Shown: piece by piece, positions 13,326 through 64,000 of the stretch
Layout: each line of letters begins with the position of its first letter
Numbering within the stretch: position 1 is the first letter of the stretch
Assembly: GCA_963727185.1 (NCBI GenBank)
Contig: CAVSFP010000006.1
Coordinates: 346,005 to 410,004, forward strand
Reading direction: 5' to 3'
DNA: 64,000 nt
DNA from: an uncultured Actinomycetes bacterium
GTDB taxonomy: Bacteria > Actinomycetota > UBA4738 > HRBIN12
The notes under the pieces: generated by a model
The model's database searches: none
Seen by the model: only the letters and a program-made list of their open reading frames with translations
Told to the model about the DNA's origin: nothing
Made by a program: the position numbers and the translations under genes

Positions 13326-13965
13326 TCAGCGACGCCACATATCCACATCGCCCACCGGCGTCAGCTCGCCCGAGGGTTTGGCGGTCGAGCGGACCCGTTC
13401 GGCGGCAGCGGCGCGGCGGCTCTCCGTCATGTTCCGCACGAGGGCGAACACGATCAGGCTCACGGCGGCGAACCAGGTGATGATCCCGATCGTCCGGACG
13501 TGCGCCGAGAGTCGGTCGGCGAGGTAGAGCTTGTCGAAGTGCTCGGGCCCCAGGATCTTGGACCAGTCGCCGAGGCCGTCGGAGGCGCCCATCAACATCA
13601 GATCGCCGCGCGGCGCGTCGTAGATGTAGCGTGCGCCGTCGCACATGGCGTTCGCGGCCCATGCCCAGCAGATGCCCCACGCGATCAGGTCGCGCTTCCA
13701 GATCGCGAACACGATCCCCGACGATGAGGGGGAACAGGATCTGGGTGCCCGTCCCCATGATCAGCATGATGAGGTTGCCGAACGGGGAGAAGATCTTGTG
13801 CCCCACCTCGTGGACCGCGATGTCCAGGAAGACGAGCACGGGAACCTGGGTGTTCTTCACGATGGCGAACCACCCGTAGATCGCGCACACGCCGAGGGCG
13901 CCGACGGCCTTGAGGGCATCCAGTCGGCGTTGGACGTCGTCGGGGAGCTGGACGGACTCCGCCAT
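13326..13965 (-). pseudogene. membrane HExxH (M50-like) putative metalloprotease, frameshifted
   Basis: N-terminal part (ORF 13027..13965 frame: ...DIAVHEVGHKIFSPFGNLIMLIMGTGTQILFPLIVG) and C-terminal part (ORF 13326..13712 frame: FAIWKRDLIAWGICWAWAAN...) join into one hydrophobic protein if one base is removed within the CCCC/GGGGG runs at 13712-13730. Confidence 0.5.
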
Positions 13966-14024
13966 GGTTCAGATATCGGCGAGACGACGGGGAACGTGAG
14001 CGTCGGCCGGACAAGTCGGGGCCC

Positions 14025-14562
14025 CTAGCTGTGGACGGCGCTCCGTTCGCGAGGCTGGAGCGATGCCGCGAAGCACCAGGCCACGCCCAGGTAGACGCAC
14101 AGGTCGCCCACGCTGACCGCGACGCCGATCGGTTCAGGCACGACGATCGAGTCGCCCAATACCAGCAGCACCGTGGTGTCGTCGGCGAGGTGGTGTTTGC
14201 GATCCGCCGTGGTGCTGGAGATCGGAGAGCGTCGACTCCTGACCCGATCGGACGAGCGCCTGGCGGGCGACCGGCATGCCGTGATTCGCGACGATGACGA
14301 TCGCGTTCAGCAGCAGACCGGTGAATATCAGGATGAAGCCCGGCGCGCGGAAGTTCAGCAACGCGAACGCGATCAGCAACACGAACGATGCCGTCAAGGA
14401 CCAGGATCCCGCGCTCCCCGTGAGCGGCAGGAACTGCAGGACGACGCCCACGATCGCGAGCGACCACCAGCCGAGCGGGATCGACGGGAAGTTCCGGAAG
14501 CTGCCGCCTGCCAACAGACCCACGATCATGGCGCCGAGGATCGTGATGACGATCAGCGTCAC
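14025..14562 (-). pseudogene. DUF5317-family membrane protein, frameshifted (paralog of 62102..62650)
   Basis: GTG start 14560-14562 overlapping larC stop. N-terminal two thirds (VTLIVITILGAMIVGLLAGGSFRNFPS...NAIVIVANHGMPV) aligns with the 62102..62650 protein. After HHGG the homologous C-terminus (KHHLADDTTVLLVLGDSIVVPEPIGVAVSVGDLCVYLG...) continues in the -1 frame to a TAG at 14025-14027. Indel near 14195-14210. Confidence 0.55.
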
Positions 14563-15749
14563 TCGCCGATCGCCTCTCGTGCCAGGCGCGTCGCTTCCTC
14601 GTAGACCTCTCGCGCGGGGACGCCGGCCTCCCGAGCGACCTTGACGCAATCCTCGAACTCGGGCGCAACCGTGACGGCGTTGCCTTCGAGACGACCGATC
14701 TTCACGCGGACCAACCCGTTCCGCGTGGCGACCTCGACCCATTCGCGCTCGAGCGCCTGCTTGTCCACGGCGGACGAACGGATGCCGAGGGTTCCGGTCT
14801 CTCGGAAGAGCACCTGGCGGATCGCTTCCTCCCGCGATTGAGAGGCCAGCACGCTGATCGTGACGGCGGGTCGTCCCTTCTTCATCACGATCGGGGTGAG
14901 CCACGCGTCCTGGGCGCCGGCCGCGAACAGGCGCTCGAGGACGTAGGCGTAGAGCTCGGGGTTGAGGTCGTCGACGTTGGTCTCGAGCACGAGCTCGCTC
15001 CCCTGCACCGTCTCGGAAGCGGCGTTCGCCGAAGGGTCCGCCTCGCCGACCACGACCCGAACCACGTTGGGGAAGTCCAACCGCGCGCTGCCGGCGCCGT
15101 ATCCGACGTGCTCGATCCGCATGTGCGGGATCTCGCCGAACCCCTCCACGAGCGCGGCGAGGATCGCCGCGCCGGTCGGCGTGACGAGCTCGACCGAGAC
15201 GTTGCGCGAATAGATCGGTGCGCCGCGCAGGAGCTCCATCACCGCCGGTGCGGGGATCGGCAGGAGTCCGTGCTCCGTCTTGACCATCCCCATCCCGGTC
15301 GGCACCGCCGAGGCGAACACCCGGTCTACCTTCAACGACGCGAGCGCGAGCGACGTGCCGACGATGTCGACGATGGAGTCGACGGCGCCCACCTCGTGGA
15401 ACGTCACCTGGTCGAGATCGCGACGATGCACCATGGCCTCGGCCTCGGCGAGTCGCCGGAAGATACGCTGCGCCATCGCCTTGGCATCGAGCGGCATCTC
15501 CGCCATGTCGAGAAGCGACCGGACGCTCGCGTAGGTTCGGATCAAGCCGTCGGTCGACGTGCGCACGTTGACCTTGGTCGCGCGGATCCCTCCGCTCTCC
15601 ACCTGTTCGACGTCGAGCTCGAACGACTCGACCGGGAGTCCCTCGAGACCCTTACGGATCGGCTCCAGGTCGGCGCCCGCATCGATCAGGGCGCCGAGGG
15701 CCATGTCGCCGGAGATCCCGGCGATGCAATCGAAGTACAGCAGCCTCAT
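14559..15749 (-). CDS. larC: nickel-pincer cofactor biosynthesis protein LarC (DUF111 nickel insertion protein)
   Basis: MRLLYFDCIAGISGDMALGALIDAGADLEP N-terminus and overall DUF111/LarC architecture. Start at internal ATG; ATGA overlap with larB stop. Confidence 0.8.
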   Translation of the reverse strand: MRLLYFDCIAGISGDMALGALIDAGADLEPIRKGLEGLPVESFELDVEQVESGGIRATKVNVRTSTDGLIRTYASVRSLLDMAEMPLDAKAMAQRIFRRLAEAEAMVHRRDLDQVTFHEVGAVDSIVDIVGTSLALASLKVDRVFASAVPTGMGMVKTEHGLLPIPAPAVMELLRGAPIYSRNVSVELVTPTGAAILAALVEGFGEIPHMRIEHVGYGAGSARLDFPNVVRVVVGEADPSANAASETVQGSELVLETNVDDLNPELYAYVLERLFAAGAQDAWLTPIVMKKGRPAVTISVLASQSREEAIRQVLFRETGTLGIRSSAVDKQALEREWVEVATRNGLVRVKIGRLEGNAVTVAPEFEDCVKVAREAGVPAREVYEEATRLAREAIGE

Positions 15750-16543
15750 CCGTCGGCCCGCGTCGTCGCGCGAACGATCCGATGGGCGACCTGCGCCGCG
15801 CCGAACCCGTTGTCGATGTTCACGACGGCGACCCCTGGGGCGCACGACGCGAGCATCGTCAGCAGGGCAGACAGCCCTTCGAAGGATGCGCCGTACCCCA
15901 CGCTGGTCGGAACGGCGACGATCGGTGTGGAGATGAGCCCCGCCACGACTGACGGGAGCGCGCCTTCCATCCCGGCGACGACGATCACGCAGTCGACCGC
16001 CTCGAGCGCGGCTCGGTGCTCGAGGATCCGGTGGACGCCGGCGACGCCCACGTCGGTGATCCGCTCGACGGTGGCTCCGGTCGCCTCGACGGTGACCGAG
16101 GCTTCCTCAGCCACCGGCAGGTCGGATGTTCCGGCAGCCACGACGGCGACCGTCGCGTCCACCGGCCGGTCGGCGGCCTTCACGACGACCAGCCGAGCCG
16201 TTTCGTGGTACCGCGCACCGGGAACCGCGTCGATCGCGGCCGCCGCCTGCTCAGGCGTCGCCCGCGTGAGCAGAACGGCTCCGTTCGAGCGCGCCGCCAA
16301 TGCGGCCGTGATCTCGCGGATCTGGTCGACGGACTTCCCGGGGCCGTAGATCGCCTCTGGATGACCGGTGCGGAGCTCTCGGTGGTGATCGACGCGCGCA
16401 TCCGTCACCGTCTCGTACGGCAGGATCCGGAGCGCCTCCACGGCGTCTTCGACGGGGGTCGTGCCGGCGGCGACGTCGTCGAGCAGCCGAGCCAGGGTTC
16501 GTTCGTCCACGAGGGGCCCCATCGTATACTCAGGAAGCCCCAC
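15746..16543 (-). CDS. larB: nickel-pincer cofactor biosynthesis protein LarB (PurE-like AIR carboxylase family)
   Basis: PurE-fold motifs (VVAGMEGALPSVVAGL; VAVPTSVGYG) with the LarB-type N-terminal extension. Confidence 0.8.
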   Translation of the reverse strand: MGLPEYTMGPLVDERTLARLLDDVAAGTTPVEDAVEALRILPYETVTDARVDHHRELRTGHPEAIYGPGKSVDQIREITAALAARSNGAVLLTRATPEQAAAAIDAVPGARYHETARLVVVKAADRPVDATVAVVAAGTSDLPVAEEASVTVEATGATVERITDVGVAGVHRILEHRAALEAVDCVIVVAGMEGALPSVVAGLISTPIVAVPTSVGYGASFEGLSALLTMLASCAPGVAVVNIDNGFGAAQVAHRIVRATTRADG

Positions 16544-16558
16544 CGAACCCGCAGGTAG

Positions 16559-27408: not shown

Positions 27409-28212
27409 ATGAGTTCGTTTGCACGGATCTGCTTCTCGCTCACAGTGTTCTTGGCGGTCGCCGGCACCGTGTACGGGCTGACGAGCCATGAGCTCGCCGG
27501 AACGACGCTCCTCGCCGTCGCGGCGATCACGTTCTGCTTCCTCGGGGTTGTGTCACGGATGGTGGCACGCCGCGAGGCCGAGGCGGAGGCCGAGGAGATG
27601 GAGGTCCACGTGGGCCCGACGATCTGGCCCTTCGGGTTCGCGATCGCCGCGGTGATCATCGCCCTCGGGCTGATCGTCACGCCCTGGCTCTTGGTCCTCG
27701 GCGCGTTCGCGTTCGCGCTCGCTGCGGCCGGGTGGCTCCGCGACGCTGCCCACTCCCGGGCGCACGCCGGAAACACCCCGAGCGGTCGATCACGCGCGGA
27801 TCATCATCCAGCCGGTGACCGCGAGGAGCGTCACGATGACCACCAGGAACACCGTGGCGTGGTATTGCGTGGGGCTCGGGCTGGGGAGCCGCGCCGGGTT
27901 GCAGCGCCTGCACACCGACTCGCCCCACGGGACGCGCTCGTGGCATCGGATGCATCGGTCGTAGCGGTCACGCGTTCCCTTCACCGGTCCCTCCCTCGTG
28001 TCACGTTCACGCGGCGATCATCCGATCCACGACGAGCGCCGCGAACAGCGCCGCCAGGTAGACGAGCGAGTAGCGGAAGAGCCGGCGGGCGGTCGCGGTG
28101 TCCGCATCCCGCCGGAACGACTCGGCCCGCCACACGAAGACGCCGCCGAGCCCCGCGGCGCTCGCCGTGTACAGCGCGCCCGCCCCGTTCCACAGGGCCG
28201 GCCCAAGGCTGA
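27409..28212 (+). CDS. ctaF: cytochrome c oxidase subunit IV-like (CtaF-like) 4-TM protein; C-terminal 130 codons doubtful
   Basis: First 135 aa form 4 TM helices as expected for actinobacterial CtaF. The ORF then continues as low-complexity Arg/Pro-rich sequence across the convergent small ORF and 200 bp into ctaB. Likely a frameshift or missed stop near 27800 (a TGA is available in the +2 frame at about 27818). Confidence 0.45.
   Translation: MSSFARICFSLTVFLAVAGTVYGLTSHELAGTTLLAVAAITFCFLGVVSRMVARREAEAEAEEMEVHVGPTIWPFGFAIAAVIIALGLIVTPWLLVLGAFAFALAAAGWLRDAAHSRAHAGNTPSGRSRADHHPAGDREERHDDHQEHRGVVLRGARAGEPRRVAAPAHRLAPRDALVASDASVVAVTRSLHRSLPRVTFTRRSSDPRRAPRTAPPGRRASSGRAGGRSRCPHPAGTTRPATRRRRRAPRRSPCTARPPRSTGPAQG
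27790..27984 (-). CDS. small zinc-ribbon membrane protein (64 aa), hypothetical
   Basis: CIRCHERVPWGESVCRRC (CxxC-x11-CxxC) followed by a single TM helix (VFLVVIVTLLAVTGWMMI). Lies within the doubtful tail of the ctaF ORF on the opposite strand. Confidence 0.3.
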   Translation of the reverse strand: MKGTRDRYDRCIRCHERVPWGESVCRRCNPARLPSPSPTQYHATVFLVVIVTLLAVTGWMMIRA

Positions 28213-28912: not shown

Positions 28913-29763
28913 CGAGCCGTCCCGCCCGCGGCCTCAGCCGTGATGCGTTCACGGAGCAGCTGGGCATCGATGCGGACCGCCGCTCGCTCATCCGCTCGCA
29001 TCCAATCGAGCATCACGAGCGCGAGCGCAGGCACGATTTGGATCATCCCCCCAACCCACATGAGCGTCCCGCCGATCCGCTGGTCCGCGATCGCGTTCCC
29101 TGCACCCTCCACGGCTCCGTAGGTTGGATACAGGACATGGTTGGCGCTGAAAAGCGCCAGTCCCAGGAACGCCATCGACGCCATCGCGAAGAAGAGATAC
29201 AGGATCCGAGCAGGGTGCGAGAGAGCCGCCGGAGAGGGGTCGCGACCGACGACCGGCATCCAGAACAGGACGGCGGTCACCAGGTAGGCGACATGTTCGA
29301 GCGCGTGGATGCCGTCGCTCTGCAGAGACGCTTCGAACAGTCCCGTGAAGTGGGATCCCCACAAAACGCCGAAGAACAGGGACCAGGCCACGATGGGCTC
29401 GGAGAGCGTCCGGAGCGGCGGACGCCTGAGCGCGGCGGCGAGCCGCCGTCGAGAGGCAGGCGACGACGAGAGAAGGGCAAGGGTCACGGGAGCACCCAGC
29501 ACCAAGAGCGGCGCGGCGACCATCGTGAGCAACAGATGCTGGACCATGTGAACGGTGAACGACGTCGCTGATCCGGTATCGATCGGCGACTCGAGCGCGA
29601 TGAAGATGATCCCCAAGCCCGCGAGGAACTCCCGCCGGCGGGCCCGTGGGAACCGTCGGTCGCCTCGCGCGCGGCGGACACGTCGGTCCGCGCGGACGTA
29701 CACGACCCCGGTCACGCCGAGGCCGAAGATGACCGCGGGGTCAAACGTCCAGTTCGCGAGCAT
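28909..29763 (-). CDS. ctaG: cytochrome c oxidase assembly factor CtaG (Caa3_CtaG family membrane protein)
   Basis: 7-TM protein with HMVQHLLLTMVAAPLLVLG and HALEHVAYLVTAVLFW motifs characteristic of Caa3-type CtaG. Overlaps ctaB stop. Confidence 0.7.
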   Translation of the reverse strand: MLANWTFDPAVIFGLGVTGVVYVRADRRVRRARGDRRFPRARRREFLAGLGIIFIALESPIDTGSATSFTVHMVQHLLLTMVAAPLLVLGAPVTLALLSSSPASRRRLAAALRRPPLRTLSEPIVAWSLFFGVLWGSHFTGLFEASLQSDGIHALEHVAYLVTAVLFWMPVVGRDPSPAALSHPARILYLFFAMASMAFLGLALFSANHVLYPTYGAVEGAGNAIADQRIGGTLMWVGGMIQIVPALALVMLDWMRADERAAVRIDAQLLRERITAEAAGGTAR

Positions 29764-30897
29764 CGCTCTCTAGCGCTCTGAACGTGCGCGTCGACACGGG
29801 AGCCAGCTCCGCCCGCGCTTGGGTCGACGAGCGCTCGGGTGGAGTGGGTACTACCGGGGAGAGCGGAAGGAGGATCTCGAACGTCGTGCCAACTCCGACC
29901 GCGCTGGAGACGCTCACCTCGCCGCCATGGGCGTCCACGATCGCCTTCACGATCGACAGGCCAAGGCCGGAGCCGCCGGTGTGTCTACTGCGTCCCGGGT
30001 CGGCTCTGGCGAACCGGTCGAAGATGTGATCGAGGTCGGCGGCCGGGATGCCCGCCCCCGTGTCGCGGACCGAGATCACCGCCCGTGAGCCGCCGCGGTG
30101 GATGCCCACTTCGATCGTGTCCTGTTCCTGCGTGTGGTTCACGGCGTTCTCGATCAGGGCGTCGAGCGCCACCTCGAGCCGGTCGGCGTCGGCGATGACG
30201 GTGGCTTCCTCGGCCGCTCCCAGGAGCCATCGACGTGGTGTCGCCGTCCATCGGCGAACGGCGTCCATCACGATCGTCTCCAGGTCCACGACCGCGGGAT
30301 GGAGGAACTCGGGATCCTCGCTCCCGGCCAGGACGAGCAACCGATCGGCCAGGCGCCGCAGCCGCATCAGCTCGTCGGCGATCACCGCGGCGTCGTCCGC
30401 GACCGTTGGATCGTCCGCGCTTCGCTGGATCAGCTCGGCGTGTCCGAGCGCGACCGTGATCGGCGTCCGCAGCTCGTGGGAGGCATCCTGCACGAAGCGC
30501 CGTTCCCGCTCGAGCAGGCGGAGGTTCTCCATGGAGACGCGCTCCGTCTCCTCCATCGCGGTGAGACGCCGCCGGCGTGCCACACCATCGCAAGGAACAT
30601 GGCCGCCATCAGGGGCACCTCGGTCAGCTCATCGAGCGGGGTGATGGCGTTCTTCACGTCCAGCCAGATCAACAGACCGGTCAATCCCATCACGAACGCC
30701 AGGATCACGAACGTGGGACGCGCCTTCCACACGCGGAACCCGTAGAGGATGGTGAGGCTCACCCAGATGAAGTGGAACGGCACCGTCTCCCATTCGGGGA
30801 ACATGAGCATGGCCCCGAGGTTCGCGAGCGAGAAGAGCACCCACGCGACGTCGAACCAGCGGACCCGGTTCGGCCACTCGACGCGGTCAGTCAGCAT
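29741..30897 (-). pseudogene. two-component sensor histidine kinase, frameshifted between TM sensor region and HisKA domain
   Basis: N-terminal 4-TM region (ORF 30430..30897) ends ...FLAMVWHA. HisKA/HATPase part (ORF 29741..30583: ...FVQDASHELRTPIT...; GAGIPAADLDHIFDRFARAD; GGSGLGLSIV) is in the -1 frame. Junction at about 30580-30600 (GC-rich cacgccggcggcg). Confidence 0.65.
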
Positions 30898-37826: not shown

Positions 37827-37863
37827 GCGCCGAGTCTACGGACGGAGGGGCTCGACTGGTGAG

Positions 37864-43271: not shown

Positions 43272-43284
43272 GACGCCGGCCGGG

Positions 43285-43914
43285 ATGACCGATCCCGTGC
43301 GGGTCCTCGTGGTCGACGACCACGCGGTGACGAGGGCGGGCATCGTGAGCCTGCTGTCGAGGTCCGATCCGGGGCTACACGTCGTCGGAGAAGCCGGGTC
43401 GGGAGAGCAGGCGATCGTCGAATGGCGCGCGCTACGTCCCGACGTGGTGCTCATGGATCTACAGATGCTGGGTGGCGACGGGATCGAAGCCATCGCACGC
43501 ATCCGCGCCGAAGATGCGAACGCGAGCGTCGTCGCGCTCACGGCGTTCGCCAGCGACGAGCTGGTCGCGGGCGCCTTCCGGGCCGGGGCCCGCGGCTACA
43601 TCGGCAAGGAGGCCTCCGGGATCGAGCTGGTCAGGGCCGTTCGCGCCGCCTCCCGTGGGGAGACGGTCGTGTCGGGCCGCGCGACCGAGCGGCTCCATTC
43701 CCACCTCAACACGGGCGACGTGATCGCGTTCACTGAGCGGGAGCGGCAGGTACTCGCGTTCCTGGAACAGGGGTGCACGGACCGCGAGATCGGGGTGGCG
43801 CTCACCATCTCCGTCAAGACGGTCGAGAAGCACGTGGGTTCGCTCCTGCGCAAGCTCGGCGCTCAGAACCGCACGCAGGCCGTGGCTCGTGCACGGGAGC
43901 GCGTCGCCGGGTAG
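43285..43914 (+). CDS. NarL/LuxR-family two-component response regulator
   Basis: Receiver VRVLVVDDHAVTRAGIVSLL...VVLMDLQMLGGDG. LuxR HTH (LTERERQVLAFLEQGCTDREIGVALTISVKTVEKHVGSLLRKLG). Confidence 0.8.
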   Translation: MTDPVRVLVVDDHAVTRAGIVSLLSRSDPGLHVVGEAGSGEQAIVEWRALRPDVVLMDLQMLGGDGIEAIARIRAEDANASVVALTAFASDELVAGAFRAGARGYIGKEASGIELVRAVRAASRGETVVSGRATERLHSHLNTGDVIAFTERERQVLAFLEQGCTDREIGVALTISVKTVEKHVGSLLRKLGAQNRTQAVARARERVAG

Positions 43915-48833: not shown

Positions 48834-48892
48834 GGTTCCTTCGAGCGGTAGCACTAGGGCGGTGGAAGGAAGTAGGCTTCGCCCATCCCGGT

Positions 48893-50530: not shown

Positions 50531-50572
50531 CGACGGCTGGCGGCGGCCTCGCCATCCTCTTAGGCTCCCGGT

Positions 50573-51652
50573 ATGTCAGACGACGTCGTGATCGAGCGTG
50601 ACGCGTTCGCGGAGCGTCTCCACGGGTCGGCGCTCGGTTTCTTCGACATCCTGTCGATCCGGCTGGGCGACCGGCTCGGTCTGTACGCGGCGCTCGCCGA
50701 AGGGGGTGGTGTCACGTCGACCGAGCTGGCCGACCGCGCCGGGATCGCCGAGCGGTACGCCCGCGAGTGGCTGGAACAGCAGACGGCGGCCGGGATCGTT
50801 CGCGCCGACGGGAAGGGTAACGGCGTCAGATTCACGCTCCCGGCGGGCCACTCGGAGGTGCTGCTCGACCGCGACAGCCTGTCGTACATGGCGCCCACCG
50901 TCCGCAGCCTGATGATGCTGACCCCCGTGATGGACGCGCTGGTCGAGGCGTATCGCACAGGTGGTGGTGTCCCCTGGGATGCCTACGGTTCGGACGGTCG
51001 GGAAGGGGTCGGCGACTCGAACCGTCCCACGTACCTGCAGGTCCTGCCGCGCGCTTGGCTCCCGAACATCGCCGAGGTCCACGACCGCCTTCGCGGGGCG
51101 CCGCCGGCTCGCGTTGCCGACATCGGCTGCGGGACGGGCTGGTCCTCGATCGCGATCGCCCACTCGTACCCAGGCGTTCGCGTGGACGGATTCGACCGGG
51201 ACGAGGAGTCGATCGCGCTCGCACGGCACAACGCCGATGTGAGCGGCATCGCCGACCGCGTGTCGTTCGAGGCTCGCGATGCGGGCGCATCTGCGGATGC
51301 CGGCGCGTACGACCTGGTCACGTTCTTCGAGTGCCTGCACGACATGTCCCGTCCGGTCGAAGCGCTGCGCGTGGCTCGCGACATGCTGGCCGTCGGGGGC
51401 GTGGTGCTCGTCGGCGACGAGCGCACCAACGACGAGTTCACAGGGGCACCGGACGACCTGGACCGCTATCACTACGGGTGGAGCGTCTTCGTGTGCCTTC
51501 CGGCGGCGATGACCGAGCCCGGTTCGGCGGGTACCGGCACGGTGATGCGTCCATCGACGCTCCGTTCGTACGCCCGCGAGGCGGGATTCGCCGGCTTCGA
51601 CGTCCTGCCGATCGAGGACGATTCGTTCCGGCTGTACCTGCTCCGGCCCTGA
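50573..51652 (+). CDS. class I SAM-dependent methyltransferase with N-terminal winged-helix/dimerisation domain
   Basis: Motif I VADIGCGTGWSSIAIA. Post-I acidic residue (DGFDRDEES). Motif (LVTFFECLHDM). Confidence 0.7.
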   Translation: MSDDVVIERDAFAERLHGSALGFFDILSIRLGDRLGLYAALAEGGGVTSTELADRAGIAERYAREWLEQQTAAGIVRADGKGNGVRFTLPAGHSEVLLDRDSLSYMAPTVRSLMMLTPVMDALVEAYRTGGGVPWDAYGSDGREGVGDSNRPTYLQVLPRAWLPNIAEVHDRLRGAPPARVADIGCGTGWSSIAIAHSYPGVRVDGFDRDEESIALARHNADVSGIADRVSFEARDAGASADAGAYDLVTFFECLHDMSRPVEALRVARDMLAVGGVVLVGDERTNDEFTGAPDDLDRYHYGWSVFVCLPAAMTEPGSAGTGTVMRPSTLRSYAREAGFAGFDVLPIEDDSFRLYLLRP

Positions 51653-51758
51653 GGGTCCGGCCGGCCACGCCGCGTCCCTCAGCCTTTCGCCGATCCTCCC
51701 TTCGTGGAACGGGGCGGTCGTTCGACCGTGCCGGTCATCCGATGTAGTCCGACCGGGT

Positions 51759-52326: not shown

Positions 52327-53631
52327 TCAGCCCTCGAACGACGCCGCGGCTTCGAGCGTTCGCTCGGTCGTGGCGTCGTCGTGCGCGGTGCAGAGGCTCC
52401 ACAGCTCGTAGCCGGACGGCGGCAGGTAGACGGCGCGGTCCAGCATGTGATGGAAGAACCGCGCGTACCGCTCGTGGTCGGCACCCTTCGCGTCCTCGAA
52501 GTTCCGCACCGTGCGATCCGTGAAGAACACGCTGAACATCGACCGCGCCCGGTTCAGGGTGGCGGCGATGCCGGCGGCGGCGAACCGTTCGGCGAGACCG
52601 TCCGTGAGGTCGATGGCACCCCGCTCGAGCGCGTCGTACGGCCGCTCGCGATCGGCGAGATCCAGCGCCGCGATGCCGGCCGCGACCGCGACCGGGTTCC
52701 CGCTCAGTGTTCCGGCTTGGTAGACGGGACCCGTCGGCGCGAGCTGCTCCATCACGGCCCCGCGTCCGCCGAACGCCGCGCACGGGAACCCCCCGCCCAT
52801 GATCTTCCCCAACGCGGTCAGGTCGGGCGTCACCCCGTACACCGAGCCGGCGCCCTCGTACGCCACCCGGAAGCCGGTGATCACCTCGTCGAAGAAGAGC
52901 AGGGCTCCGTGCTCGTCGCAGAGCGCGCGGAGCCCTTCGAGGAACCCCGGCTCCGGCGGCACGACCCCCATGTTCGCGGCGACGGGCTCGACCACGACGA
53001 CCGCGATCTCGCGCCCGCGTTCGCCGAAGATCGCCGCGACGGCGTCCAGGTCGTTGAACGGGCTCGTTATCGTGTCCCTCGCCGACCCCTCGGTCACGCC
53101 GGGAGAGCCGGGTATGCCGAACGTGGCGACGCCCGAGCCGGCGCCCTTCGCCAGCAACGCGTCCGAGTGGCCGTGATAGCAACCATCGAACTTGACCAAC
53201 AGGTCGCGACCCGTGACGCCGCGCGCGAGCCTGATCGCGCTCATCGTCGCCTCGGTGCCTGACGAGACCAGACGCACCATGTCGATGCTTGGGACGGCCG
53301 AGACGATCCGCTCCGCGAGCTCGACCTCGCCGGCCGTCGGCGCGCCGAACGACGTACCGCGCGCGGCCGCCGCCGTCGCTGCCTCGACGATCTCGGGTCG
53401 CGCGTGCCCGAAGAGCAACGCCCCCCACGACTGGACGTAGTCCACGTAACGCACGCCGTCCACGTCGATCAGATGGGCGCCCTCGCCTCGTTCGACGAAT
53501 CGCGGCGTCCCGCCGACCGCTCCGAACGCGCGCACCGGGGAGTCGACGCCCCCGGGGATCACGTTGGAGGCACGTTTGAAGAGGTCGTCGGAGTTGCTCA
53601 CGCGAACGATGGTACGTGGCGGATCAATCAA
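52327..53631 (-). CDS. hemL: glutamate-1-semialdehyde 2,1-aminomutase
   Basis: PLP class III aminotransferase. IPGGVDSPVRAF, FDEVITGFRV, lysine motif region. Confidence 0.9.
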   Translation of the reverse strand: MIDPPRTIVRVSNSDDLFKRASNVIPGGVDSPVRAFGAVGGTPRFVERGEGAHLIDVDGVRYVDYVQSWGALLFGHARPEIVEAATAAAARGTSFGAPTAGEVELAERIVSAVPSIDMVRLVSSGTEATMSAIRLARGVTGRDLLVKFDGCYHGHSDALLAKGAGSGVATFGIPGSPGVTEGSARDTITSPFNDLDAVAAIFGERGREIAVVVVEPVAANMGVVPPEPGFLEGLRALCDEHGALLFFDEVITGFRVAYEGAGSVYGVTPDLTALGKIMGGGFPCAAFGGRGAVMEQLAPTGPVYQAGTLSGNPVAVAAGIAALDLADRERPYDALERGAIDLTDGLAERFAAAGIAATLNRARSMFSVFFTDRTVRNFEDAKGADHERYARFFHHMLDRAVYLPPSGYELWSLCTAHDDATTERTLEAAASFEG

Positions 53632-54048
53632 GGCAGAATTCGTTGCCTTCCGGATCCTGCATCGTGATCCAGAACGCGCCGCGCTCCTCGAACTCGTAGA
53701 GCTTCGTCGCGCCCAGCTCGATGAGCCGCGCCGACTCCTCCGTCAGTCGCGCGCGACGGGCGTCGGATCGACCTGGTGCGCGCGCGCACGTCGAGGTGCA
53801 CGCGATTCTTCGCGGTCTTGCCTTCGGGGACCCGTTGAAAGACACGCGCGCTCCGCTTCCATGGGGTCGACGATCGCGCTCTGATCGTTCCATCGCTCTT
53901 CGGGTATGCCCTTCTCGCGAGCCCAGTCCTCCCAGGATGACCACCCCTCGGGTGGCGGTTCCTCGATGTAGCCCAAGACCTGCTTCCAGAATCCGGCAAG
54001 CGCGGCGGGATCCGCCGCATCGAACGTCACCTGCATCGCAAGGGCCAT
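53624..54048 (-). pseudogene. VOC/glyoxalase-like domain protein disrupted by two frameshifts
   Basis: N-terminus MALAMQVTFDAADPAALAGFWKQVLGYIEEPPPEGWSSWEDW (ORF 53743..54048 frame). Middle RVFQRVPEGKTAKNRVHLDV (ORF 53628..54020 frame). C-terminus LIELGATKLYEFEERGAFWITMQDPEGNEFCLD (ORF 53624..54301 frame). All three frames needed to read one 135-aa protein. Confidence 0.5.
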
Positions 54049-54054
54049 CGATCG

Positions 54055-54301
54055 CTACTCCTCTCGCAGTCGCTTCCGCAACCCTATGGCGCACCGTTCG
54101 TAGCCGAGTGCGGCGTAGAACCGGTGGGCTTCCGGGCGGTGGTCGCCCGACATCAGCAACAGGTCGCCGCACCGGCATCGGCCGCCGGCGCTGCGCGTCC
54201 TCCATCAGTGCCCTGCCGACGCCGCTCCGTCGAGTGGACGCCAGCACGGCCACGTAGTTCACGAACGCTCTGGGGGCCGCCTGACGGACGCTGATCGTCA
54301 C
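54055..54301 (-). pseudogene. truncated/frameshifted GNAT acetyltransferase remnant
   Basis: Only the C-terminal GNAT portion is present (VNYVAVLASTRRSGVGRALMEDA... then in another frame RCGDLLLMSGDHRPEAHRFYAALGYERCAIGLRKRLREE). Too short for an intact GNAT. Confidence 0.35.
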
Positions 54302-54302
54302 G

Positions 54303-55282
<980 letters not shown>

Positions 55283-55286
<4 letters not shown>

Positions 55287-56938
55287 GAGCGGGATTCTAC
55301 CGAGGAGCGCCAGACCCGTTCCAGGGCCGAGACCAGGCCCTCGATCGTGTGCGGGCGGGCGACGGCCGAGACCCGCAGACCGTGCTCCCGAGCCTCGCGA
55401 GCCGTGACAGGACCGATGCTCACGACCTTCGGGTTCCCGCGGACGACCCCCATCGCTCCGACGAACCCGCGGACCGTCGATGCGCTGGTGAACGTGATGG
55501 CGTCGACGCCGCCGTCTCGGAGCGCGGTTCGCGCGTCGGTCGGGAGCGAGCGCGCCAGGCGCGTCCGGTACGCATCGACGCGGAGCGGGGACCAGCCCTT
55601 CGCCGCCAGCGCGTCCTCGAGTCCGCCGGGTGCGATGTCGGCTCGCGCGCAGAGGACGCCTCCGTCGCCGCGCGGGAACGCGCGGGCCAACCCTGCAGTC
55701 GTGAACGTCGCCGGCATGAGGTCGGGCGGCCGCCGGGCCCACGCGCGGAACGCCGCGCTCGTCCCATCGCCGATCGCCGCTACCTTCGCACGGACGGCCG
55801 CTGGGGAATCCAGCCTCGACGCCAGCATCTCCACCGTCGCGCGGCTGGTGAGCGTGATCCACGCGAACCGGCCCGCCGAGAGGTCGCGCAGCGCCGCGGT
55901 CAGTGCGGCGGATCGCGCCGGAACGATCTCGATCGTCGGCGCCACGATGGACGTGGCTCCCAGGCGGCGCAGCCGACGGACGAGCTCGACGGACTGGTCG
56001 GCCGGTCTCGTCACCAGGACGGTCCGGCCTGCGAGTGGCTTCACCGGTCGTCGTCCAGCGCCTCGAGGAATCTCTTCGGCTCCCTCGGCGATGAGATCCT
56101 TCGTCGCGAGCGCCGCGGCTCCCTCGGGGGAGTCGGAGACGACCTCCACGCGCGCCACCCGCGACCCATCGGGGGCGATGACGACGGCGAGCATCTCGAT
56201 GCGGCCTCCGTGAACGGTGGCCCGTGCGCCGAGCGGGAGCGCACAGCTGCCGCCGATCCGCCACATCAACGAGCGCTCCGCCTCGAGCGACATCCGGCTT
56301 TCGGCATGGTCGAGCGGCGCCAGGGCGGTGAGCGTCGCGAGATCGTCCTCGCGCGCCTGGAGCGCGAGCGCGCCCTGTCCGGGTGCGGGGACCATCACGT
56401 CCATCCCGAGGGGAGCGGAATGGGGCGCGGTGATGCCGAGACGCGTCAAGCCTGCGAGCGCGAGCACCGCGGCGTCGACGACGCCGTCGGTCACCTTCCG
56501 CAGTCGCGTGTCCACGTTCCCGCGAAGGTCTTCGACGGTCACCCCGGGGAACGCCCGGAGGAGTTGTGCTCGCCGGCGGATGCTCGACGTCCCGATCACG
56601 GCCCCGGTGCGGAGCGACGCCTCCCGCAGCACCAGGACATCGGCGGCGTCGAGTCGGGGAGGAACGGCCGCGATGATCAGGCCCTCGTCGTCCTCGGCCG
56701 GGAGGTCCTTGGCCGAATGGACGGCGACGTCGATCTCATCGCGTTCGAGCGCGTCGAGGATCGTGTCGACGAAGAGGCCCTTCAGGCCGGCCGGCGCCTC
56801 GCCGGATGGCGCCCCCTCGTCGCCCGATGTCGACATCGGAACGATCTCGGACTCCACGCCGTGCTCCGACAGGCGGCGGCGGACCTCGTCCGCCTGAGCG
56901 AGGGCGAGCGGAGAGCGGCGTGTCCCGGTCAGCGTCAC
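55283..56938 (-). CDS. hemCD: bifunctional hydroxymethylbilane synthase / uroporphyrinogen-III synthase (HemC-HemD fusion)
   Basis: GTG start overlapping hemA stop. HemC part (TRRSPLALAQADEV...AVHSAKDLP...GTSSIRRRAQL...GGSCALPLGA) continues without stop into HemD part (GRTVLVTRPADQSVELVRRLRRLGATSIVAPTIEIVP...ITFTSASTVRGF). Confidence 0.85.
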
Positions 56939-58210
56939 TCGGCGTCGGGGTCGAGCCGCAGGAGCTCCATCAGCAGCTTCGCGTGCAGGTCGTCGGCTCC
57001 GGGCTCGGATCGCTCCTTCAGCTCGACGATCGGGTCGTGCAAGAGCTTCGCGGCCACCCCACGTGCGACCGCTTCGACCGCCTCGCGCTCCCGAGGCGTC
57101 AGGTCGGAGAGACGACTTGCATAGCGGGCGAGCTCCGAGCGGACGGTCTCCTCGCCCCGTGCCTGCACGGCTCGGATCAACGGGGCGAGCGCGTCGGAGC
57201 GGCGCCGCACCACCCACCGCCGGACCTCCTCGGCCACGATCTCGTGCGCTCGAGCGATGTCGTCGGCGGTGGCGTCGCCCCCCGCCATGAGCCGTTCGCG
57301 GATGGCGCGGATGTCGATCGAGCCGCACGCCATCCAGCGCCACGACGCCGGGGTCGATGTCGCGAGGGACGGCCAGGTCCAACAGGACGAGCGGAGCGGT
57401 ACGGGTCCGTTCGAGTGCCGCACCGACGGTCTCGGCGTCGATCACCGCCCCGGCGGCGCCGGTCGCCGAGACCACCAGGTCCGCGTCCGCGATGGCCGAT
57501 CGGAGATGGTCGAGACCCGCGAAGTCGTCGCCAGCCCGCTCGGCCAACGCCCGCGCGTGCTCGAGCGAGCGGTTCAGCACCCGGACGCTGCCGACGCCAC
57601 GAGCATGCAGATGTTGCACCGCGAGTCCGGCCATCCGGCCGGCGCCGACCACGACCACGTGACGGTCGCGGAGATCGCCGAGCTCCTCCTCTGCCAGGTC
57701 GGCCCCGAGCGCAACGAACGCGTCGGGTGCAGCGCCGAGCGAGGTTTCGGCGCGCGCCCGTCGGCCCGCCCGCGCGGCCGCATGGAACAGGGAGCGCATC
57801 GCGGGGCCTGAGGCTCCTTCCGCCGCGGCCGTTCGCAGCGCCTCGCGCACCTGGGCGTGGATCTGCGTCTCGCCGATCACCATCGAATCCAGCCCCGCGG
57901 CCACCGCGAACAGGTGGTCGGCCGCGTCCTGCTCCCAATGGGAGTAGAGCGGCTCGGCCAGCTCCTCGGGAGCAACTCTGCGCGTCTCGGTCAGCACGCG
58001 TTTCAACGCCAGGAACCCGGCGTGGTACGAGGGGACGTTCGCGGTGATCTCGACTCGGTTGCAGGTGGACAGGATGACCGCCTCGTCGACGGCATCCATG
58101 TCGAGCGCGTGGCGGTAGGCCTTGACGAGCTCGTCGTCGGCGAACGAGAGCCGCTCCAGCAGCTCGATCGGTGCGCGTCGGAAGCTGATCCCGAGGGTGA
58201 GGATGGGCAT
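56935..58210 (-). pseudogene. hemA: glutamyl-tRNA reductase, apparent single frameshift
   Basis: N-terminal and NADPH domains in ORF 55283..58210 frame (MPILTLGISFRRAPIELLERL...STCNRVEI...VVVVGAGRMAG...LAVPRDIDPGVVALDGVRL) then dimerisation domain in ORF 56935..57423 frame (IDIRAIRERLMAGGDATADDIARAHEIV...KLLHDPIVELKERS). Junction about 57308-57330. Confidence 0.75.
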
Positions 58211-59337: not shown

Positions 59338-59346
59338 CCTGCAGCG

Positions 59347-60539: not shown

Positions 60540-62102
60540 CTATCCCGTCGCCGCGGCCTCATCCGGCGCGTGGATCGGCAGCCGAACCGTGAACGTGCTG
60601 CCCTCGCCGTGCACGCTCTGCACCGAGACGGTCCCTCCGAGGTGATGGACGAGGTCGCGGACCATCGACAGTCCGAGTCCGGCACCGCTGAACCGGCGGG
60701 TGGACGACGAGTCCACCTGATAGAAGCGATCGAAGATCCGCTCTATCTGCTCCGGCTCGATCCCGATCCCGCAGTCGCGGACGGAGAACACCAGCTCGCC
60801 GCCATCGGCGCGGGCGTCCAGCTCGCATGCCGATCCTTCGGGCGAGTACTTCAAGGCATTGTCCAACAGGTTGGTGATGACGCGCGACAGGAGTTGCCGG
60901 TCGGTGTGGAGCACCGGGATGTCGTCGGGGACGTGGGCCACGATCCGTTCGGCGTCGTTGCCCAGGCCTTCGATCGTCTCGCGGCACAGGTCTTCGAACA
61001 GGACGCGGCCGACCGAGATGGACAACTGGTCGTTCTCCAGGCGCGAGGTGGTCAGTAGGTTCTCGACCAGTCCGATCAAGCGGTTCCCCTGGCGCTCCAT
61101 CCGTTCCAGGAACTCCTCTCGCAGGAGTGCGTCGTCGGCGAACTGGGGCAGCCGAAGGGTCTTCGCGTACCCGGTCATCGCCGTGATCGGGGTCCGCAGC
61201 TCGTGCGAGACGACCGCGACGAACTCGCCCTTCATGCGGTTCAGCTCTCGGAGCTGATCGACCGTCGCGCTCTCCTTGCGGAGGAGGTGCTCTAATCGTT
61301 CGGCCTGCGCCGTCAGGAGCTCGTTCTGCTCCGCGAGGCGGTCGGCCATCATGCGGCTCTGGAAGTACATCTGACGGGCGAACACGACCGGCGCGAGGAA
61401 GACGACGACCGACCAGGCGCCCTCCTCGATGAAGAACCGCGCGATGACTACGCCGAAGAGAGCCAGACCGATGTACGAGGCGAGGAACTCGACCGGCCGT
61501 GAACCGTGCATCTTCTTGAGGACCTGCCGGACCGTGAGCCCATGTTGGAGCGAGGCGTGCAGGGCCACGAGGATCGCGTTGATCGCGTAGGCCGTGATCG
61601 TGGCGGCCAGGGCGGCGGGGACGAGGATCCACCACGGGGAGGTCACGCTCGCGAGCTGATGGAACACCAGGCTCGCCGCGATGATCGCGAGTCCCATCTG
61701 GGACCTGTTCCACATCGCCCGCAGGAACGGGATCTCTCGGCGGAACTCGTGGATATCCGACGAGCCGACGATGGCGATCATCCCGGCGACCGGCGGGCTG
61801 TAGAGCATGGCGACCCCGATCATGATCGGGAAGGACAGCGACAGTTCGATGTCCTCCCATGCCGGGATCGGGATGAGGTCGACCGCCATGATGCACACGA
61901 CGAAGAAGAGCGCTCCCCATCCGACCGTCGTCCAGTCCACGAGGGTCGCTTGCCAACAGAGCCAGCAGGCCAACGGGATGATCAGGACCGCTTCGAGCGC
62001 GGTGACCGAGGCGCTCCCCGCGGCGACGTTCCCGACCGAGGGGGATCGCTTCTCGAGGGCCTCGGGGCCGCCGATGTCCTCGATGGGGTCACGCACGTCC
62101 AT
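60540..62102 (-). CDS. membrane sensor histidine kinase with about 7-TM N-terminal sensing module
   Basis: Start at internal ATG 62100-62102 (MDVRDPIEDIG...), ATGA overlap with upstream DUF5317 gene. 7 hydrophobic helices, then HisKA (VVSHELRTPITAM) and HATPase (NLLDNALKYS; RDCGIGIEPEQIERIFDRFYQ; GAGLGLSMV). No cognate regulator adjacent. Confidence 0.8.
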   Translation of the reverse strand: MDVRDPIEDIGGPEALEKRSPSVGNVAAGSASVTALEAVLIIPLACWLCWQATLVDWTTVGWGALFFVVCIMAVDLIPIPAWEDIELSLSFPIMIGVAMLYSPPVAGMIAIVGSSDIHEFRREIPFLRAMWNRSQMGLAIIAASLVFHQLASVTSPWWILVPAALAATITAYAINAILVALHASLQHGLTVRQVLKKMHGSRPVEFLASYIGLALFGVVIARFFIEEGAWSVVVFLAPVVFARQMYFQSRMMADRLAEQNELLTAQAERLEHLLRKESATVDQLRELNRMKGEFVAVVSHELRTPITAMTGYAKTLRLPQFADDALLREEFLERMERQGNRLIGLVENLLTTSRLENDQLSISVGRVLFEDLCRETIEGLGNDAERIVAHVPDDIPVLHTDRQLLSRVITNLLDNALKYSPEGSACELDARADGGELVFSVRDCGIGIEPEQIERIFDRFYQVDSSSTRRFSGAGLGLSMVRDLVHHLGGTVSVQSVHGEGSTFTVRLPIHAPDEAAATG

Positions 62103-62650
62103 CAGGCGGTGGCCTTGCTGCTGACGGTGCGAGGGCGGCGTCGCGGCATCGAGAACACGATGAAGCATGCGGCGCCCAACTGCACGCACACGTCCCCGAT
62201 CGAGATGGCCTGGTTCAACGGCTGGCCCAGCGGGATCACATCACCCAGCGGGAGGAGGTTCGTCGTGCCATCGGCCAGATGGTGCTTCGCGCCTCCGTTC
62301 GCGATCAACTCGTTCAGGGTCGCCGATTGATCGGAACCTTCCAGGGCGTTGCGGGTGACCGGCATCCCCTGGTTCGCGACGATGACGATCGCGTTCAAGG
62401 CGAGGCCGATCAGGATCAGGACGACCCCTGGGGCCCGGATGTTGACGATCGCGAACGCGATCAGGGCGGCGAACGACGCGTAGAGGAGGATGGTTCCGGG
62501 CGTCCCCCCGACGGGGATGAACTGCAGCACAACACCCGCCAGGGCCAGCCAGGCACTGCGGAGCGTCGTCGAGGGGAAGTCGCGGAACGTGCCGCCGGCC
62601 AACAGGCCGGCGACGGACGCCGCGACAACAGTGAGCATGATCAGCCGCAT
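62102..62650 (-). CDS. DUF5317-family membrane protein (intact paralog)
   Basis: MRLIMLTVVAASVAGLLAGGTFRDFPSTTLRSAWLALAGVVLQFIPVGG...LNAIVIVANQGMPV...AKHHLADGTTNLLPLGDVIPLG. Homologous to the frameshifted gene at 14025..14562. DUF5317 assignment from memory. Confidence 0.6.
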   Translation of the reverse strand: MRLIMLTVVAASVAGLLAGGTFRDFPSTTLRSAWLALAGVVLQFIPVGGTPGTILLYASFAALIAFAIVNIRAPGVVLILIGLALNAIVIVANQGMPVTRNALEGSDQSATLNELIANGGAKHHLADGTTNLLPLGDVIPLGQPLNQAISIGDVCVQLGAACFIVFSMPRRRPRTVSSKATA

Positions 62651-62890: not shown

Positions 62891-62909
62891 GTACGGCTCC
62901 TTGCCGATA

Positions 62910-62939: not shown

Positions 62940-63012
62940 ACACGGCTCCCCGTCGTGCCACTGCTCTCAACCGGCGGGCTCCCCGGTCCCCATCTTCTCT
63001 AGAATCCTTCGC

Positions 63013-63101
63013 GGAGACGTGCCTGAGTGGCCGAAAGGAGCCGCCTGCTAAGCGGTTAAGGGGGTAACACTCCTTCCCGGGTTCGAATCCCGGCGTCTCC
63101 G
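63013..63101 (+). tRNA. tRNA-Ser (anticodon GCT), class II
   Basis: Acceptor GGAGACG/CGTCTCC-G. Anticodon loop CTGCTAA. Long variable arm TAAGGGGGTAACACTCCTTCC. T-arm CCGGGTTCGAATCCCGG. Confidence 0.8.
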
Positions 63102-63112
63102 CCGGTCAGGGA

Positions 63113-64000
63113 TCAGACGCCGAGCTTCTCTTCGGCGAGCCGGGTGCCCTCGATACGCGCGCCGATCTTCTCGAACGCGACGTCCCTCGAGGTCGACGTG
63201 TCGTCGGCGAACGGGGAGAACCCGCAGTCGTCCGTCGTGCCCAGGTGCGACACGGGAACGTACGACGCGGCCTCGACGACCCGGTCTCGAACCTCCTCCG
63301 GCGACTCCACGCGCGGGTCGATGGGGTCGATCACGCCCACGAAGACGCGCTGCTCTGGACGCCGATGCTCGGCGATCAGCTCGAGCACGCCGCCCCGGTC
63401 CGCCTCGCCCGCCAGCTCGATGTAGAGGTTGCCGGCGTGGTGCGCGAACAGGTCGGGGAGGAACTGGGCGTAGTCGACGTCGGCGCTGTGCGTCGAGTCG
63501 CGATCGCCGCCGGGGCACGTGTGGACGCCGATCCGCTGCCCGTTCTTCGGCCGAGAAGCGATCGAGCACGCGGTTGTTCAGCGCCACGAAGTCGCGGAGC
63601 AGCTGGCCGGACGGGTCGAGCTTGAGCGACAGTCGCCCTTCGGTGAAGTCGATCTGGACGCTGTGCGCGCCCTGTTGGAGCGACCGGCGGATGTCGGTTT
63701 CGCACTCCGCGACGAGATCGTCCAGGAACGCCTCGCGCGGATACCCGTCGATCCCATCCTGCGGATACAACAGGCTCATGGCCGAGGCCGCGATGACTGC
63801 CTGCTTGACCGGCACGTGCGCGTAACGCTTCGCGGCGACCAAGTACTCGTCGGCGTACCGGCCGAACCGGAACGGCCCCGACGTGAGTGCCGGGAGCTGT
63901 CTCGTGTGCCCGTCGGCGAACGGGATAACGGCGCCCTCGGGCGCCAGGTTGTCCAGGCCTTCGAGCGGATAGGTCACGAAACTCGACTTGGTTTGCTCGC
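63113..64000 (-). pseudogene. cobalamin-independent methionine synthase (MetE C-terminal domain)-like protein, partial at window edge and frameshifted
   Basis: C-terminus (ORF 63113..63388 and upstream same frame: RIGVHTCPGGDRDSTHSADVDYAQFLPDLFAHHAGNLYIELAGEADRGGVLELIAEHRRP...SHLGTTDDCGFSPFADD) and upstream part (ORF 63048..63977 frame: ...VPVKQAVIAASAMSLLYP...VALNNRVLDRFSAEE) are in different frames. Junction about 63525-63545. N-terminus lies beyond position 64000. Confidence 0.6.

Follow-up and report, generated by a model that had tools for sequence, protein, structure and literature searches.

The reading-frame breaks that interrupt recognizable genes between 13.3 and 64 kb of the analyzed DNA of an uncultured actinobacterium (the window, 64,000 nucleotides in full) are best explained, with a probability of roughly 85% as judged from sequence comparison, as residual long-read consensus errors and not as pseudogenes. 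This reading, already put forward in a preliminary description of the same DNA, is favored because no other assembly compared, among up to three independent lineages at about 95% identity, shares the lesions, the corrected genes are full-length, conserved and under purifying selection, and the sister assemblies carry other private indels of their own. The isolated breaks would then be errors that survived polishing, mostly consisting of one spurious additional base, usually C or G.

Frame breaks in the assembled sequence

Frame switches were located by an unbiased, codon-usage based Viterbi segmentation of the entire window, and exact lesion positions were obtained from DNA alignments with close relatives sharing 93-96% nucleotide identity, plus one (L085) at 85%. 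In total, about 11 indels of a single base and one of two bases break the frame between 13.3 and 64 kb, affecting 10 genes (Table 1), and a 192-nt deletion in the GNAT acetyltransferase gene comes in addition. Roughly one gene in six of this stretch is broken as assembled. The segmentation placed same-strand frame switches without a stop codon at 13716/7, 14205/6, 30565/6, 43134/5, 57318/9, and 63547/8, next to a disordered zone at 53635-54311, and at 27768 the coding signal is lost. It returned no frame switch within 1-13 kb and, in any gene, no premature in-frame stop with coding signal continuing across it. The isolated sites outside the GNAT/VOC cluster (13720, 14200, 30575, 43134, 55313, 56070, 57320, and 63538) comprise six insertions, one deletion, and one loss of two bases, with a single lesion per broken gene everywhere except in VOC and GNAT. 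Their spread is uneven, with none in 1-13 kb, one in 31-53 kb, and five one-base indels within 420 bp of GNAT/VOC.

Table 1. Affected genes and their lesions in window coordinates. Inserted bases stand in square brackets; the last column names the relatives from which the window differs at the lesion.
Feature	Position	Strand	Corrected length	Lesion	Context of the insertion	Relatives
HExxH membrane protein gene	13326..13965	-	212 aa	+1 at 13720	GT[C]GGGGATC (coding strand)	L084, L085
DUF5317 gene	14025..14562	-	178 aa	+1 at 14200	GGATC[G]CAAAC (coding strand)	L084, L085
ctaF (Cyt_c_ox_IV)	27409..28212	+		stop codon missing; conserved part ends ~27771		L085
Sensor histidine kinase	29741..30897	-	385 aa	-1 at ~30575		L085
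GAF-HisKA_3-HATPase-REC-GerE hybrid kinase/regulator	42063..43914	+	616 aa	+1 C at 43134	GAG[C]GGGGAG	L083, L086
VOC / Glyoxalase_6 gene	53624..54048	-		+1 at 53780, -1 at 53843, -1 at 53864; in-frame -3 at 53770		L167, L081, L082
GNAT acetyltransferase remnant	54055..54301	-		192-nt deletion at 54271; -1 at 54186; -1 at 54172		L167, L081, L082
hemD (uroporphyrinogen-III synthase)	55283..56044	-		-2 at 55313		L167, L081, L082
hemC (porphobilinogen deaminase)	56041..56938	-		+1 T at 56070		L167, L081, L082
hemA (glutamyl-tRNA reductase)	56935..58210	-	424 aa	+1 C at 57320	GGCT[C]GATCGAC	L167, L081, L082
MetE-like (Meth_synt_2) gene	63113..64000, runs off window end	-		+1 C at 63538	CGGG[C]AGCGG	L167, L081

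The switches match the previously listed genes split between adjacent frames, and eight of the nine frameshift sites proposed at that time are borne out by the alignments with relatives. The ninth, a presumed frameshift in the tail of ctaF at about 27800, turned out to be a missing stop codon. The Cyt_c_ox_IV domain is present in full (residues 5-111, profile 5-124 of 132), and in comparison with L085, the one relative available there (85% identity), a 3-nt gap lies exactly on the stop codon following AGHP, and a second gap, of 2 nt, is found 8 nt away. Lacking this stop, the ORF continues for another 140 codons across the convergent genes. In turn, two sites had been missed, one at the 3' end of hemC and one at that of hemD.

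Removing or adding the respective base restores full-length conserved proteins in the case of HemA, the GAF kinase, DUF5317, the HExxH protein, the sensor kinase, and VOC. The corrected HExxH protein, matching no Pfam family, shares 86% identity across its entire length with the intact protein of L085, and the corrected DUF5317 protein shares 97% identity with that of L084 over 178 aa, its Pfam DUF5317 match crossing the junction unbroken (profile 17-149 of 151). For the sensor kinase, identity to the intact L085 kinase amounts to 88% over 386 aa, with the HisKA and HATPase_c domains located downstream of the break; L085 is the sole relative covering this site, so that it rests, like ctaF, on one comparison at 85% nucleotide identity. 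The GAF kinase has more than 100 orthologues of 600-620 aa, most of them of 609-617 aa, and one of these, P0121 (97% identity), reads DDEGEQHALGLGGM. Its shortened 402-aa product including the out-of-frame tail is exactly identical to P0123, encoded on a 564,285-bp contig (NCBI and ENA). In the MetE-like gene, the Pfam match likewise spans the junction unbroken (profile 141-304 of 324). A further difference at 63946 was considered as a lesion of the window and rejected, being an insertion private to L081.

The split of hemA, previously placed at about 57308-57330, was pinned to a single inserted C. Six more distant relatives align over frames -1 and -2 with residues adjacent at 57320/57318, and the corrected HemA matches many GlutR proteins of 424 aa at 100% coverage, with identities reaching 96%; some of these proteins come from JGI and NCBI. 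The T inserted at 56070 replaces the final 8 hemC codons and fuses hemC in frame with hemD, and the loss of two bases at 55313 replaces the last 5 hemD residues (LGAPR) by 9 others. Both native endings, LEALDDDR and GAPR, each followed by a stop, are still legible in the neighboring frame. In the assembly, a single ORF of 975 aa begins at the hemA start and continues through hemC into hemD.

Private indels in the window and in sister assemblies

The comparison with further assemblies, which the preliminary description had recommended, revealed that at every site covered by at least two relatives the window alone differs. The region 51.7-64 kb was covered by L167, L081, and L082, the region 13.7-14.2 kb by L084 and L085, and position 43134 by L083 and L086; L167, L081/L082, and the window represent three lineages with a mutual identity of ~95.5%. 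The dN/dS values of hemA (downstream part), the MetE-like gene (0.09), and VOC fall within 0.06-0.20, the range of neighbors intact in the window, and hemA gave 0.17 upstream vs 0.12 downstream of the break. Among the broken genes, the search for hallmarks of relaxed selection returned neither raised dN/dS (GNAT being ambiguous) nor nonsense mutations, and multiple lesions per gene occurred in VOC and GNAT only.

These data bear on the possibility that all lesions are real, i.e., that the organism carries a heavy and very recent pseudogene load including hemA and is a heme/ALA auxotroph or has another source of ALA. The lesions do stand in the deposited sequence, and the lineage is uncultured. 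Nevertheless, we consider this very improbable: it would mean a single lesion in each of about a sixth of the genes, accompanied neither by nonsense mutations nor by a higher dN/dS, in an organism whose remaining heme pathway is intact. The latter had been stated before and holds true, hemE, cpfC, cgoX, and chdC (32.2-36.3 kb) showing no frame-breaking difference from L083. Moreover, four other assemblies of the species-level group would need equally heavy but entirely different loads, with independent hits in hemA, hemC, hemL, and uvrD. Decay of the Mycobacterium leprae type is comparable in that many conserved genes are frameshifted and in that GNAT/VOC combines a deletion bias with one larger deletion. 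It differs from the present case, where lesions are single apart from GNAT/VOC, nonsense mutations are lacking, dN/dS is not raised, essential genes are affected although their pathway is otherwise intact, and the genes broken in close relatives are not the same ones.

Each sister assembly is an ENA metagenome assembly in its own right, its contigs being named in Flye style, and five of them (L081, L082, L084, L086, and L167) carry private indels of their own, mostly +1, mostly outside homopolymers, and in different genes. In L167, hemA likewise contains a private +1, though at another position, so that HemA is called at 387 aa, and the kinase gene has four private indels. Private +1 insertions are found in hemC (two), hemL, and GNAT of L082, and in four genes of L081, one of them yielding a spurious 703-aa fusion of DUF5317 and kinase. 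L084 has private insertions in a PAS protein and the HExxH gene, and in L086 UvrD is split into four pieces and PPK2 into two. L086 alone accounts for 54 private one-base insertions, 36 of which leave homopolymer length unchanged, vs 10 deletions. The density of private indels varies by contig, from ~5 per kb in L086 to about none in L083. This signature is common to the sister assemblies and the isolated sites of the window, with the GNAT/VOC cluster lacking the insertion bias.

Several junctions had been described as sitting in short G/C homopolymers. A C indeed stands directly ahead of a G run at 13720 and 43134, but the only homopolymer lengthened is that at 56070 (T to TT). Five of the six insertions outside the cluster do not extend a homopolymer, and the added base is mostly a C or G at a non-repetitive position. 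The insertion at 53780 can be read as extension of a short GC repeat, and in all remaining ones the inserted base differs from both neighbors. No common motif was found at the junctions; GATC lies near several of them, but this tetramer is found every 80 nt on average and shows no enrichment at the 54 insertions of L086.

The breaks might in principle be decoded in vivo by programmed ribosomal frameshifting, known for prfB, dnaX, and IS transposases, where one full-length product likewise needs two frames, or by transcriptional slippage, or they might be phase-variable switches at simple repeats. Beyond the frame breaks as such and the two sites adjoining a GGGG run, nothing speaks for this explanation, and it is effectively refuted by orthologues of 85-97% identity whose frame is uninterrupted at the corresponding positions, leaving no conserved recoding site. 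In addition, the inserted base lengthens no repeat at six of seven insertion sites, the sites share no motif, slippery or stimulatory elements are lacking, and the gene families are unrelated.

Isolated private one-base indels in otherwise conserved genes, at a comparable density in sister assemblies and varying by contig, resemble the errors of Nanopore-only assemblies generated with Flye and Medaka. The GTDB relatives bear Microflora Danica long-read names, and the respective workflow relied on Nanopore data alone, assembled with Flye (--meta --nano-hq) and polished once with Medaka (PMC12313526). Its MAG catalogue was inspected for possible Nanopore-associated errors, and coding density was reduced in some lower-coverage MAGs (PMC12313526). 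We infer that the window, which belongs to a deposited 564-kb contig, likewise stems from a long-read-only metagenome, probably Nanopore with Flye and Medaka like its closest relatives, and that the indels would lack read support. One difference is that the classic account of such errors stresses homopolymer length (PMC9262707), whereas the window, its technology being inferred, mostly shows an extra C or G outside homopolymers.

The GNAT/VOC cluster between hemB and hemL

The VOC gene had been described as hit twice between 53850 and 54000. Its frame breaks are real features of the assembled sequence; they amount, however, to three one-base lesions plus an in-frame loss of three bases. The disruption of the GNAT remnant, expected at about 54100-54200, was found as two one-base deletions. 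Altogether the cluster holds four one-base deletions and one insertion in addition to the losses of 3 and 192 nt, a bias that departs from the ~69 insertions to 12 deletions of the other assemblies (binomial p ~0.002). All lesions of both genes are private to the window with respect to L167, L081, and L082.

With 142 aa in relatives, VOC shows 94% identity to L081 after correction, an unbroken Pfam match (profile 1-105 of 106), and a dN/dS of 0.098. Its window-private changes are 16 synonymous vs 4 non-synonymous ones, compared with 147 vs 43 in other genes. In GNAT, encoding 146 aa in the three relatives, the 192-nt deletion is flanked by a short CCCG-type repeat and takes out codons ~11-74, so that what is left aligns with Acetyltransf_1 over profile positions 56-116 of 116 only. 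Its dN/dS is 0.33 on 80 codons. In L167, where the gene is intact, private changes are 4 synonymous vs 4 non-synonymous.

The disruptions between hemL and hemB had been suggested to be genuine decay, and a mixed origin can be envisaged on these grounds: the isolated indels would be errors, and the GNAT-VOC cassette would truly be in the process of being lost in this strain; true mutations would then be the 192-nt deletion together with some, if not all, of the neighboring one-base deletions. Against about eight lesions in the other 50 kb, the cluster has seven within 500 bp, and its bias toward deletions sets it apart from the error signature found elsewhere. Furthermore, a short direct repeat marks the ends of the 192-nt deletion, the GNAT remnant combines its dN/dS with loss of the N-terminal half of the domain, and the cassette is accessory, more distant relatives having no GNAT-VOC between hemB and hemL. 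The large deletion and the deletion bias fit decay, but the VOC data do not. Given the 16:4 ratio and a dN/dS of 0.10, VOC appears to have been selected along essentially the whole branch, and its three indels would therefore not be old mutations. Three to four recent VOC indels with no excess of substitutions would require an indel-to-substitution ratio near 1:1, and base substitutions usually outnumber indels about 10:1. GNAT, moreover, is equally unconstrained in L167. We thus regard a mixed origin as possible but doubtful.

In the consensus-error reading, the lesions at 53.77-54.27 kb most likely reflect a locally poor consensus, possibly because co-occurring strains truly differ in length by 192 nt; the large GNAT deletion itself may be genuine. 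The uneven lesion density and a deletion-biased cluster beside a repeat-flanked 192-nt deletion are points that speak against this reading.

Consequences for annotation and metabolic reconstruction

The finding is an ordinary one, a data-quality warning that concerns quality control rather than biology. About one gene in six would here be mis-annotated as truncated, fused, or pseudogene, and the truncated kinase product (P0123) has already entered public protein collections. Before use, such contigs need frameshift-aware annotation or short-read polishing; with the extra C or G lying outside homopolymers, homopolymer-aware filters would miss errors of this kind. Metabolic models built from this genome would mistakenly count the C5 heme pathway as broken. 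If all breaks were true, this uncultured actinobacterium would be a recent ALA/heme auxotroph with an unusual burst of frameshifts; as consensus errors, they would leave hemA and the other genes intact in the organism itself.

Localization of the frame breaks

Shadow ORFs are abundant at the 68% G+C of the window; therefore, coding segments were assigned with a codon-usage model trained on twelve long ORFs in combination with a seven-state Viterbi segmentation, and each segment was examined for whether its 3' end falls on a stop codon. At all ordinary gene boundaries a stop was found within a few bases of the Viterbi switch. Across the whole window, the switches lacking a stop codon comprised those listed in the table, accompanied by a disordered zone and by an ORF that stays open to 28212 although its coding signal is lost at 27768; the first 13 kb (1-13 kb) contained zero such exceptions. 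This independent scan reproduced the breaks of the preliminary description, which had listed at least nine single-base frameshifts.

The organism belongs to an uncultured lineage of Actinomycetota, sharing 73-80% HemB identity with the best species-representative genomes, several of which are Microflora Danica long-read MAGs. A scan of species-representative contigs provided relatives of at most 80% identity, allowing protein-level mapping of the hemA break, and a CtaB search of metagenome contigs yielded relatives of at most 55% identity among the matches listed. Matches to HemA, “corrected” (like other proteins below) by removing or adding the indel base, and further hits led to seven contigs of relatives, the best being 96-98% identical at protein level; HemB had no exact match. 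L081, L082 and L167 cover 45-64 kb of the window, L083 and L086 31-51 kb, L084 10-22 kb, and L085 (MAG GCA_936418855.1, 85% identity) 12-32 kb. Multiple alignments with these contigs placed the exact lesions, thereby confirming and extending the list of frame breaks.

Lesions in the window relative to aligned relatives (+, bases extra; -, bases missing) and corresponding exceptions in the Viterbi scan
Gene	Lesion	Viterbi exception
HExxH membrane protein	+1 at 13720	13716/7
DUF5317 gene	+1 at 14200	14205/6
Sensor kinase	-1 at 30575	30565/6
GAF hybrid kinase	+1 at 43134	43134/5
VOC	+1 at 53780, -1 at 53843, -1 at 53864	disordered zone 53635-54311
GNAT	-1 at 54172, -1 at 54186, -192 at 54271	disordered zone 53635-54311
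hemD 3' end	-2 at 55313	
hemC 3' end	+1 at 56070, joins hemC to hemD	
hemA	+1 at 57320	57318/9
MetE-like gene	+1 at 63538	63547/8

The lineages also differ by numerous intergenic indels and by in-frame changes (-3 at 53770, 56931, 58868 and 43712; -9 at 36342), all of which look like ordinary variation. In the MetE-like gene, a further frameshift suspected at 63946 turned out to be an insertion private to L081, the window being without lesion there. The suspected ctaF frameshift was not demonstrated. The domain is complete, and the stop with which L085, the sole relative covering this site, ends (AGHP*) is absent from the window. The ctaF frame (27409-28212) consequently reads on for 140 codons over a convergent 65-aa zinc-ribbon gene and ctaB, with a substitution, an indel or an error as candidate causes.

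Larger segments also vary. A stretch of 1.35 kb (37833-39187) missing from L083 and L086 is probably a strain-specific insertion; its 394-aa ORF of the Fic/DOC family (37864..39048, minus strand) contains the motif HPFGDGNGRTGR and is atypical in codon usage. At 48365-48872, a 508-nt segment including a short coding-like ORF (~48483-48814, plus strand) stands in place of ~42 nt in L083 and is also absent from L082 and L167. Another variable spot (50567-51675), between a 147-aa gene and an FAD oxidoreductase, carries a 359-aa ORF (50573..51652, plus strand) not found in L082; its place is taken by methyltransferase and winged-helix genes in L167, and the copy in L081 is much more divergent and indel-rich.

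Privacy of the lesions and conservation of the corrected genes

While L081 and L082 are 98% identical, L167, the L081/L082 pair and the window are ~95.5% identical in each pairwise comparison, thus representing three independent lineages. At all sites within 51.7-64 kb, L167 sides with L081/L082 against the window. L084 and L085 agree with each other and differ from the window at 13720 and 14200, and at 43134 L083, L086 and more than 100 orthologues (~600-620 aa) all differ from it. From this concordance it follows that the window states are private and derived. The 402-aa truncation product of the kinase, with its out-of-frame tail, is itself on record (P0123; NCBI and ENA, 564,285-bp contig), so the lesion at 43134 belongs to the deposited assembly and is not a later introduction. 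The affected gene (42063-43914) encodes a conserved hybrid of ~617 aa with GAF, HisKA_3, HATPase, REC and GerE DNA-binding domains, a layout common to more than 100 orthologues.

The corrected HemA matched numerous glutamyl-tRNA reductases of 424 aa that are intact, some of them from JGI and NCBI, with up to 96% identity over full coverage. End-to-end identities to intact relatives amounted to 97% for DUF5317, 94% for VOC, 88% for the sensor kinase and 86% for the HExxH protein, and Pfam domains run unbroken over the junctions. In comparison with L081, the hemA segments upstream and downstream of the break gave dN/dS values of 0.17 and 0.12, respectively, the MetE-like gene 0.09 and VOC 0.10, with genes intact in the window ranging from 0.06 to 0.20. 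A three-lineage comparison assigned 16 synonymous and 4 non-synonymous VOC changes to the window branch (147 and 43, respectively, in other genes). In no gene was coding signal seen past an in-frame stop. Given full alignment, no relaxation of selection and no in-frame stops, the lesions must be either extremely recent or not real.

Private indels of sister assemblies and candidate error mechanisms

The sister contigs are from separate ENA assemblies with Flye-style names, and every one of them shows private one-base indels that affect other genes. In L167, hemA contains a private +1 near window position 58127, differing from the window's site, so that HemA is called at 387 aa; the kinase gene of this contig has four more private indels. 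L082 shows private +1 events in hemC (two, near 56870 and 56681), hemL (near 53454) and GNAT, L081 in the MetE-like, DAO, S58 peptidase and DUF5317 genes. The L081 insertion in DUF5317 (L081 5555-7666, window 62332) creates a spurious 703-aa DUF5317-histidine kinase fusion; a frameshift suspected around 62150 is thereby dismissed as an error of L081, since the window has two complete genes here, one for DUF5317 (62102..62650) and a separate one for the kinase. Private insertions interrupt the PAS protein and HExxH genes of L084. In L086, UvrD is broken into four fragments and PPK2 into two; the private changes of this contig within 12 kb amount to 54 one-base insertions and 10 deletions. In L085, differences near window positions 17976, 27250, 27292, 28431 and 28736 comprise a private +1 that cuts serS in two and several long poly-G or poly-C runs where the window sequence is mixed; they resemble errors particular to this MAG and of another type. 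That hemA, hemC, hemL and uvrD were each inactivated independently in sibling populations is not biologically credible; the pattern has the appearance of residual consensus errors.

Insertions outnumber deletions among the relatives' private indels (~69 to 12), the bases being mostly C or G. The window's isolated lesions, with six insertions, one deletion and one -2 outside the GNAT/VOC cluster, match this signature. In the Microflora Danica long-read study, exclusively Nanopore reads were assembled with Flye --meta --nano-hq and polished in a single round of Medaka; when the authors checked the catalogue for possible Nanopore-associated errors, they found some lower-coverage MAGs with reduced coding density (PMC12313526). 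We infer that the window derives from a data set of this type.

Homopolymer-length errors were rejected as a mechanism: the inserted base lengthens a run at one of the seven window insertions (T to TT at 56070, the only case outside the GNAT/VOC cluster), and two thirds of the L086 insertions extend no homopolymer. An association with GATC, which would have suggested methylation-linked basecalling errors, was likewise rejected. This motif is found close to four to six of the junctions, at a distance of a few bases, a proximity only marginal at its expected frequency (799 in the window, once per 80 nt; this equals the trinucleotide-based Markov expectation and is four times that from mononucleotides), and the 54 private L086 insertions showed no GATC enrichment. 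CTAG is under-represented in the window (ratio 0.40). Programmed frameshifting and phase variation fail as explanations because the orthologues show no frame break and the junctions do not lie in repeats.

The GNAT/VOC cluster and consequences for annotation

Seven differences fall within 500 bp in GNAT/VOC, a cluster that had been proposed as possible genuine decay. Of its one-base events, four are deletions and one is an insertion, which departs from the insertion-biased signature elsewhere (binomial p about 0.002, taking a deletion fraction of 0.15). In addition, the GNAT domain has lost its N-terminal half to the 192-nt deletion, which a short CCCG-type repeat flanks; both features fit deletional decay. 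However, selection on VOC is not relaxed at all, three recent indels without substitution excess in a 430-bp gene would be unusual for true mutation, and GNAT is equally unconstrained where intact. In our reading, the one-base events reflect a locally faulty consensus, to which a real difference in length between strains occurring together may have given rise, and the 192-nt deletion may be real. We regard a version with some real decay as rather unlikely.

Taken together, the private lesions, the conserved corrected genes and the sister assemblies' own indels support the main reading of the preliminary description, namely consensus errors: the frame breaks most likely represent a known type of assembly artefact, and a true deletion may be present at a single small locus. 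As assembled, positions 55283-58210 (minus strand) form a single 975-aa ORF that opens at the hemA start, passes through out-of-frame sequence and continues into hemC and hemD, and that would be annotated as a false HemA-HemC-HemD fusion. The value of these findings lies in the caution they call for when this genome is annotated or pathways are inferred from it.
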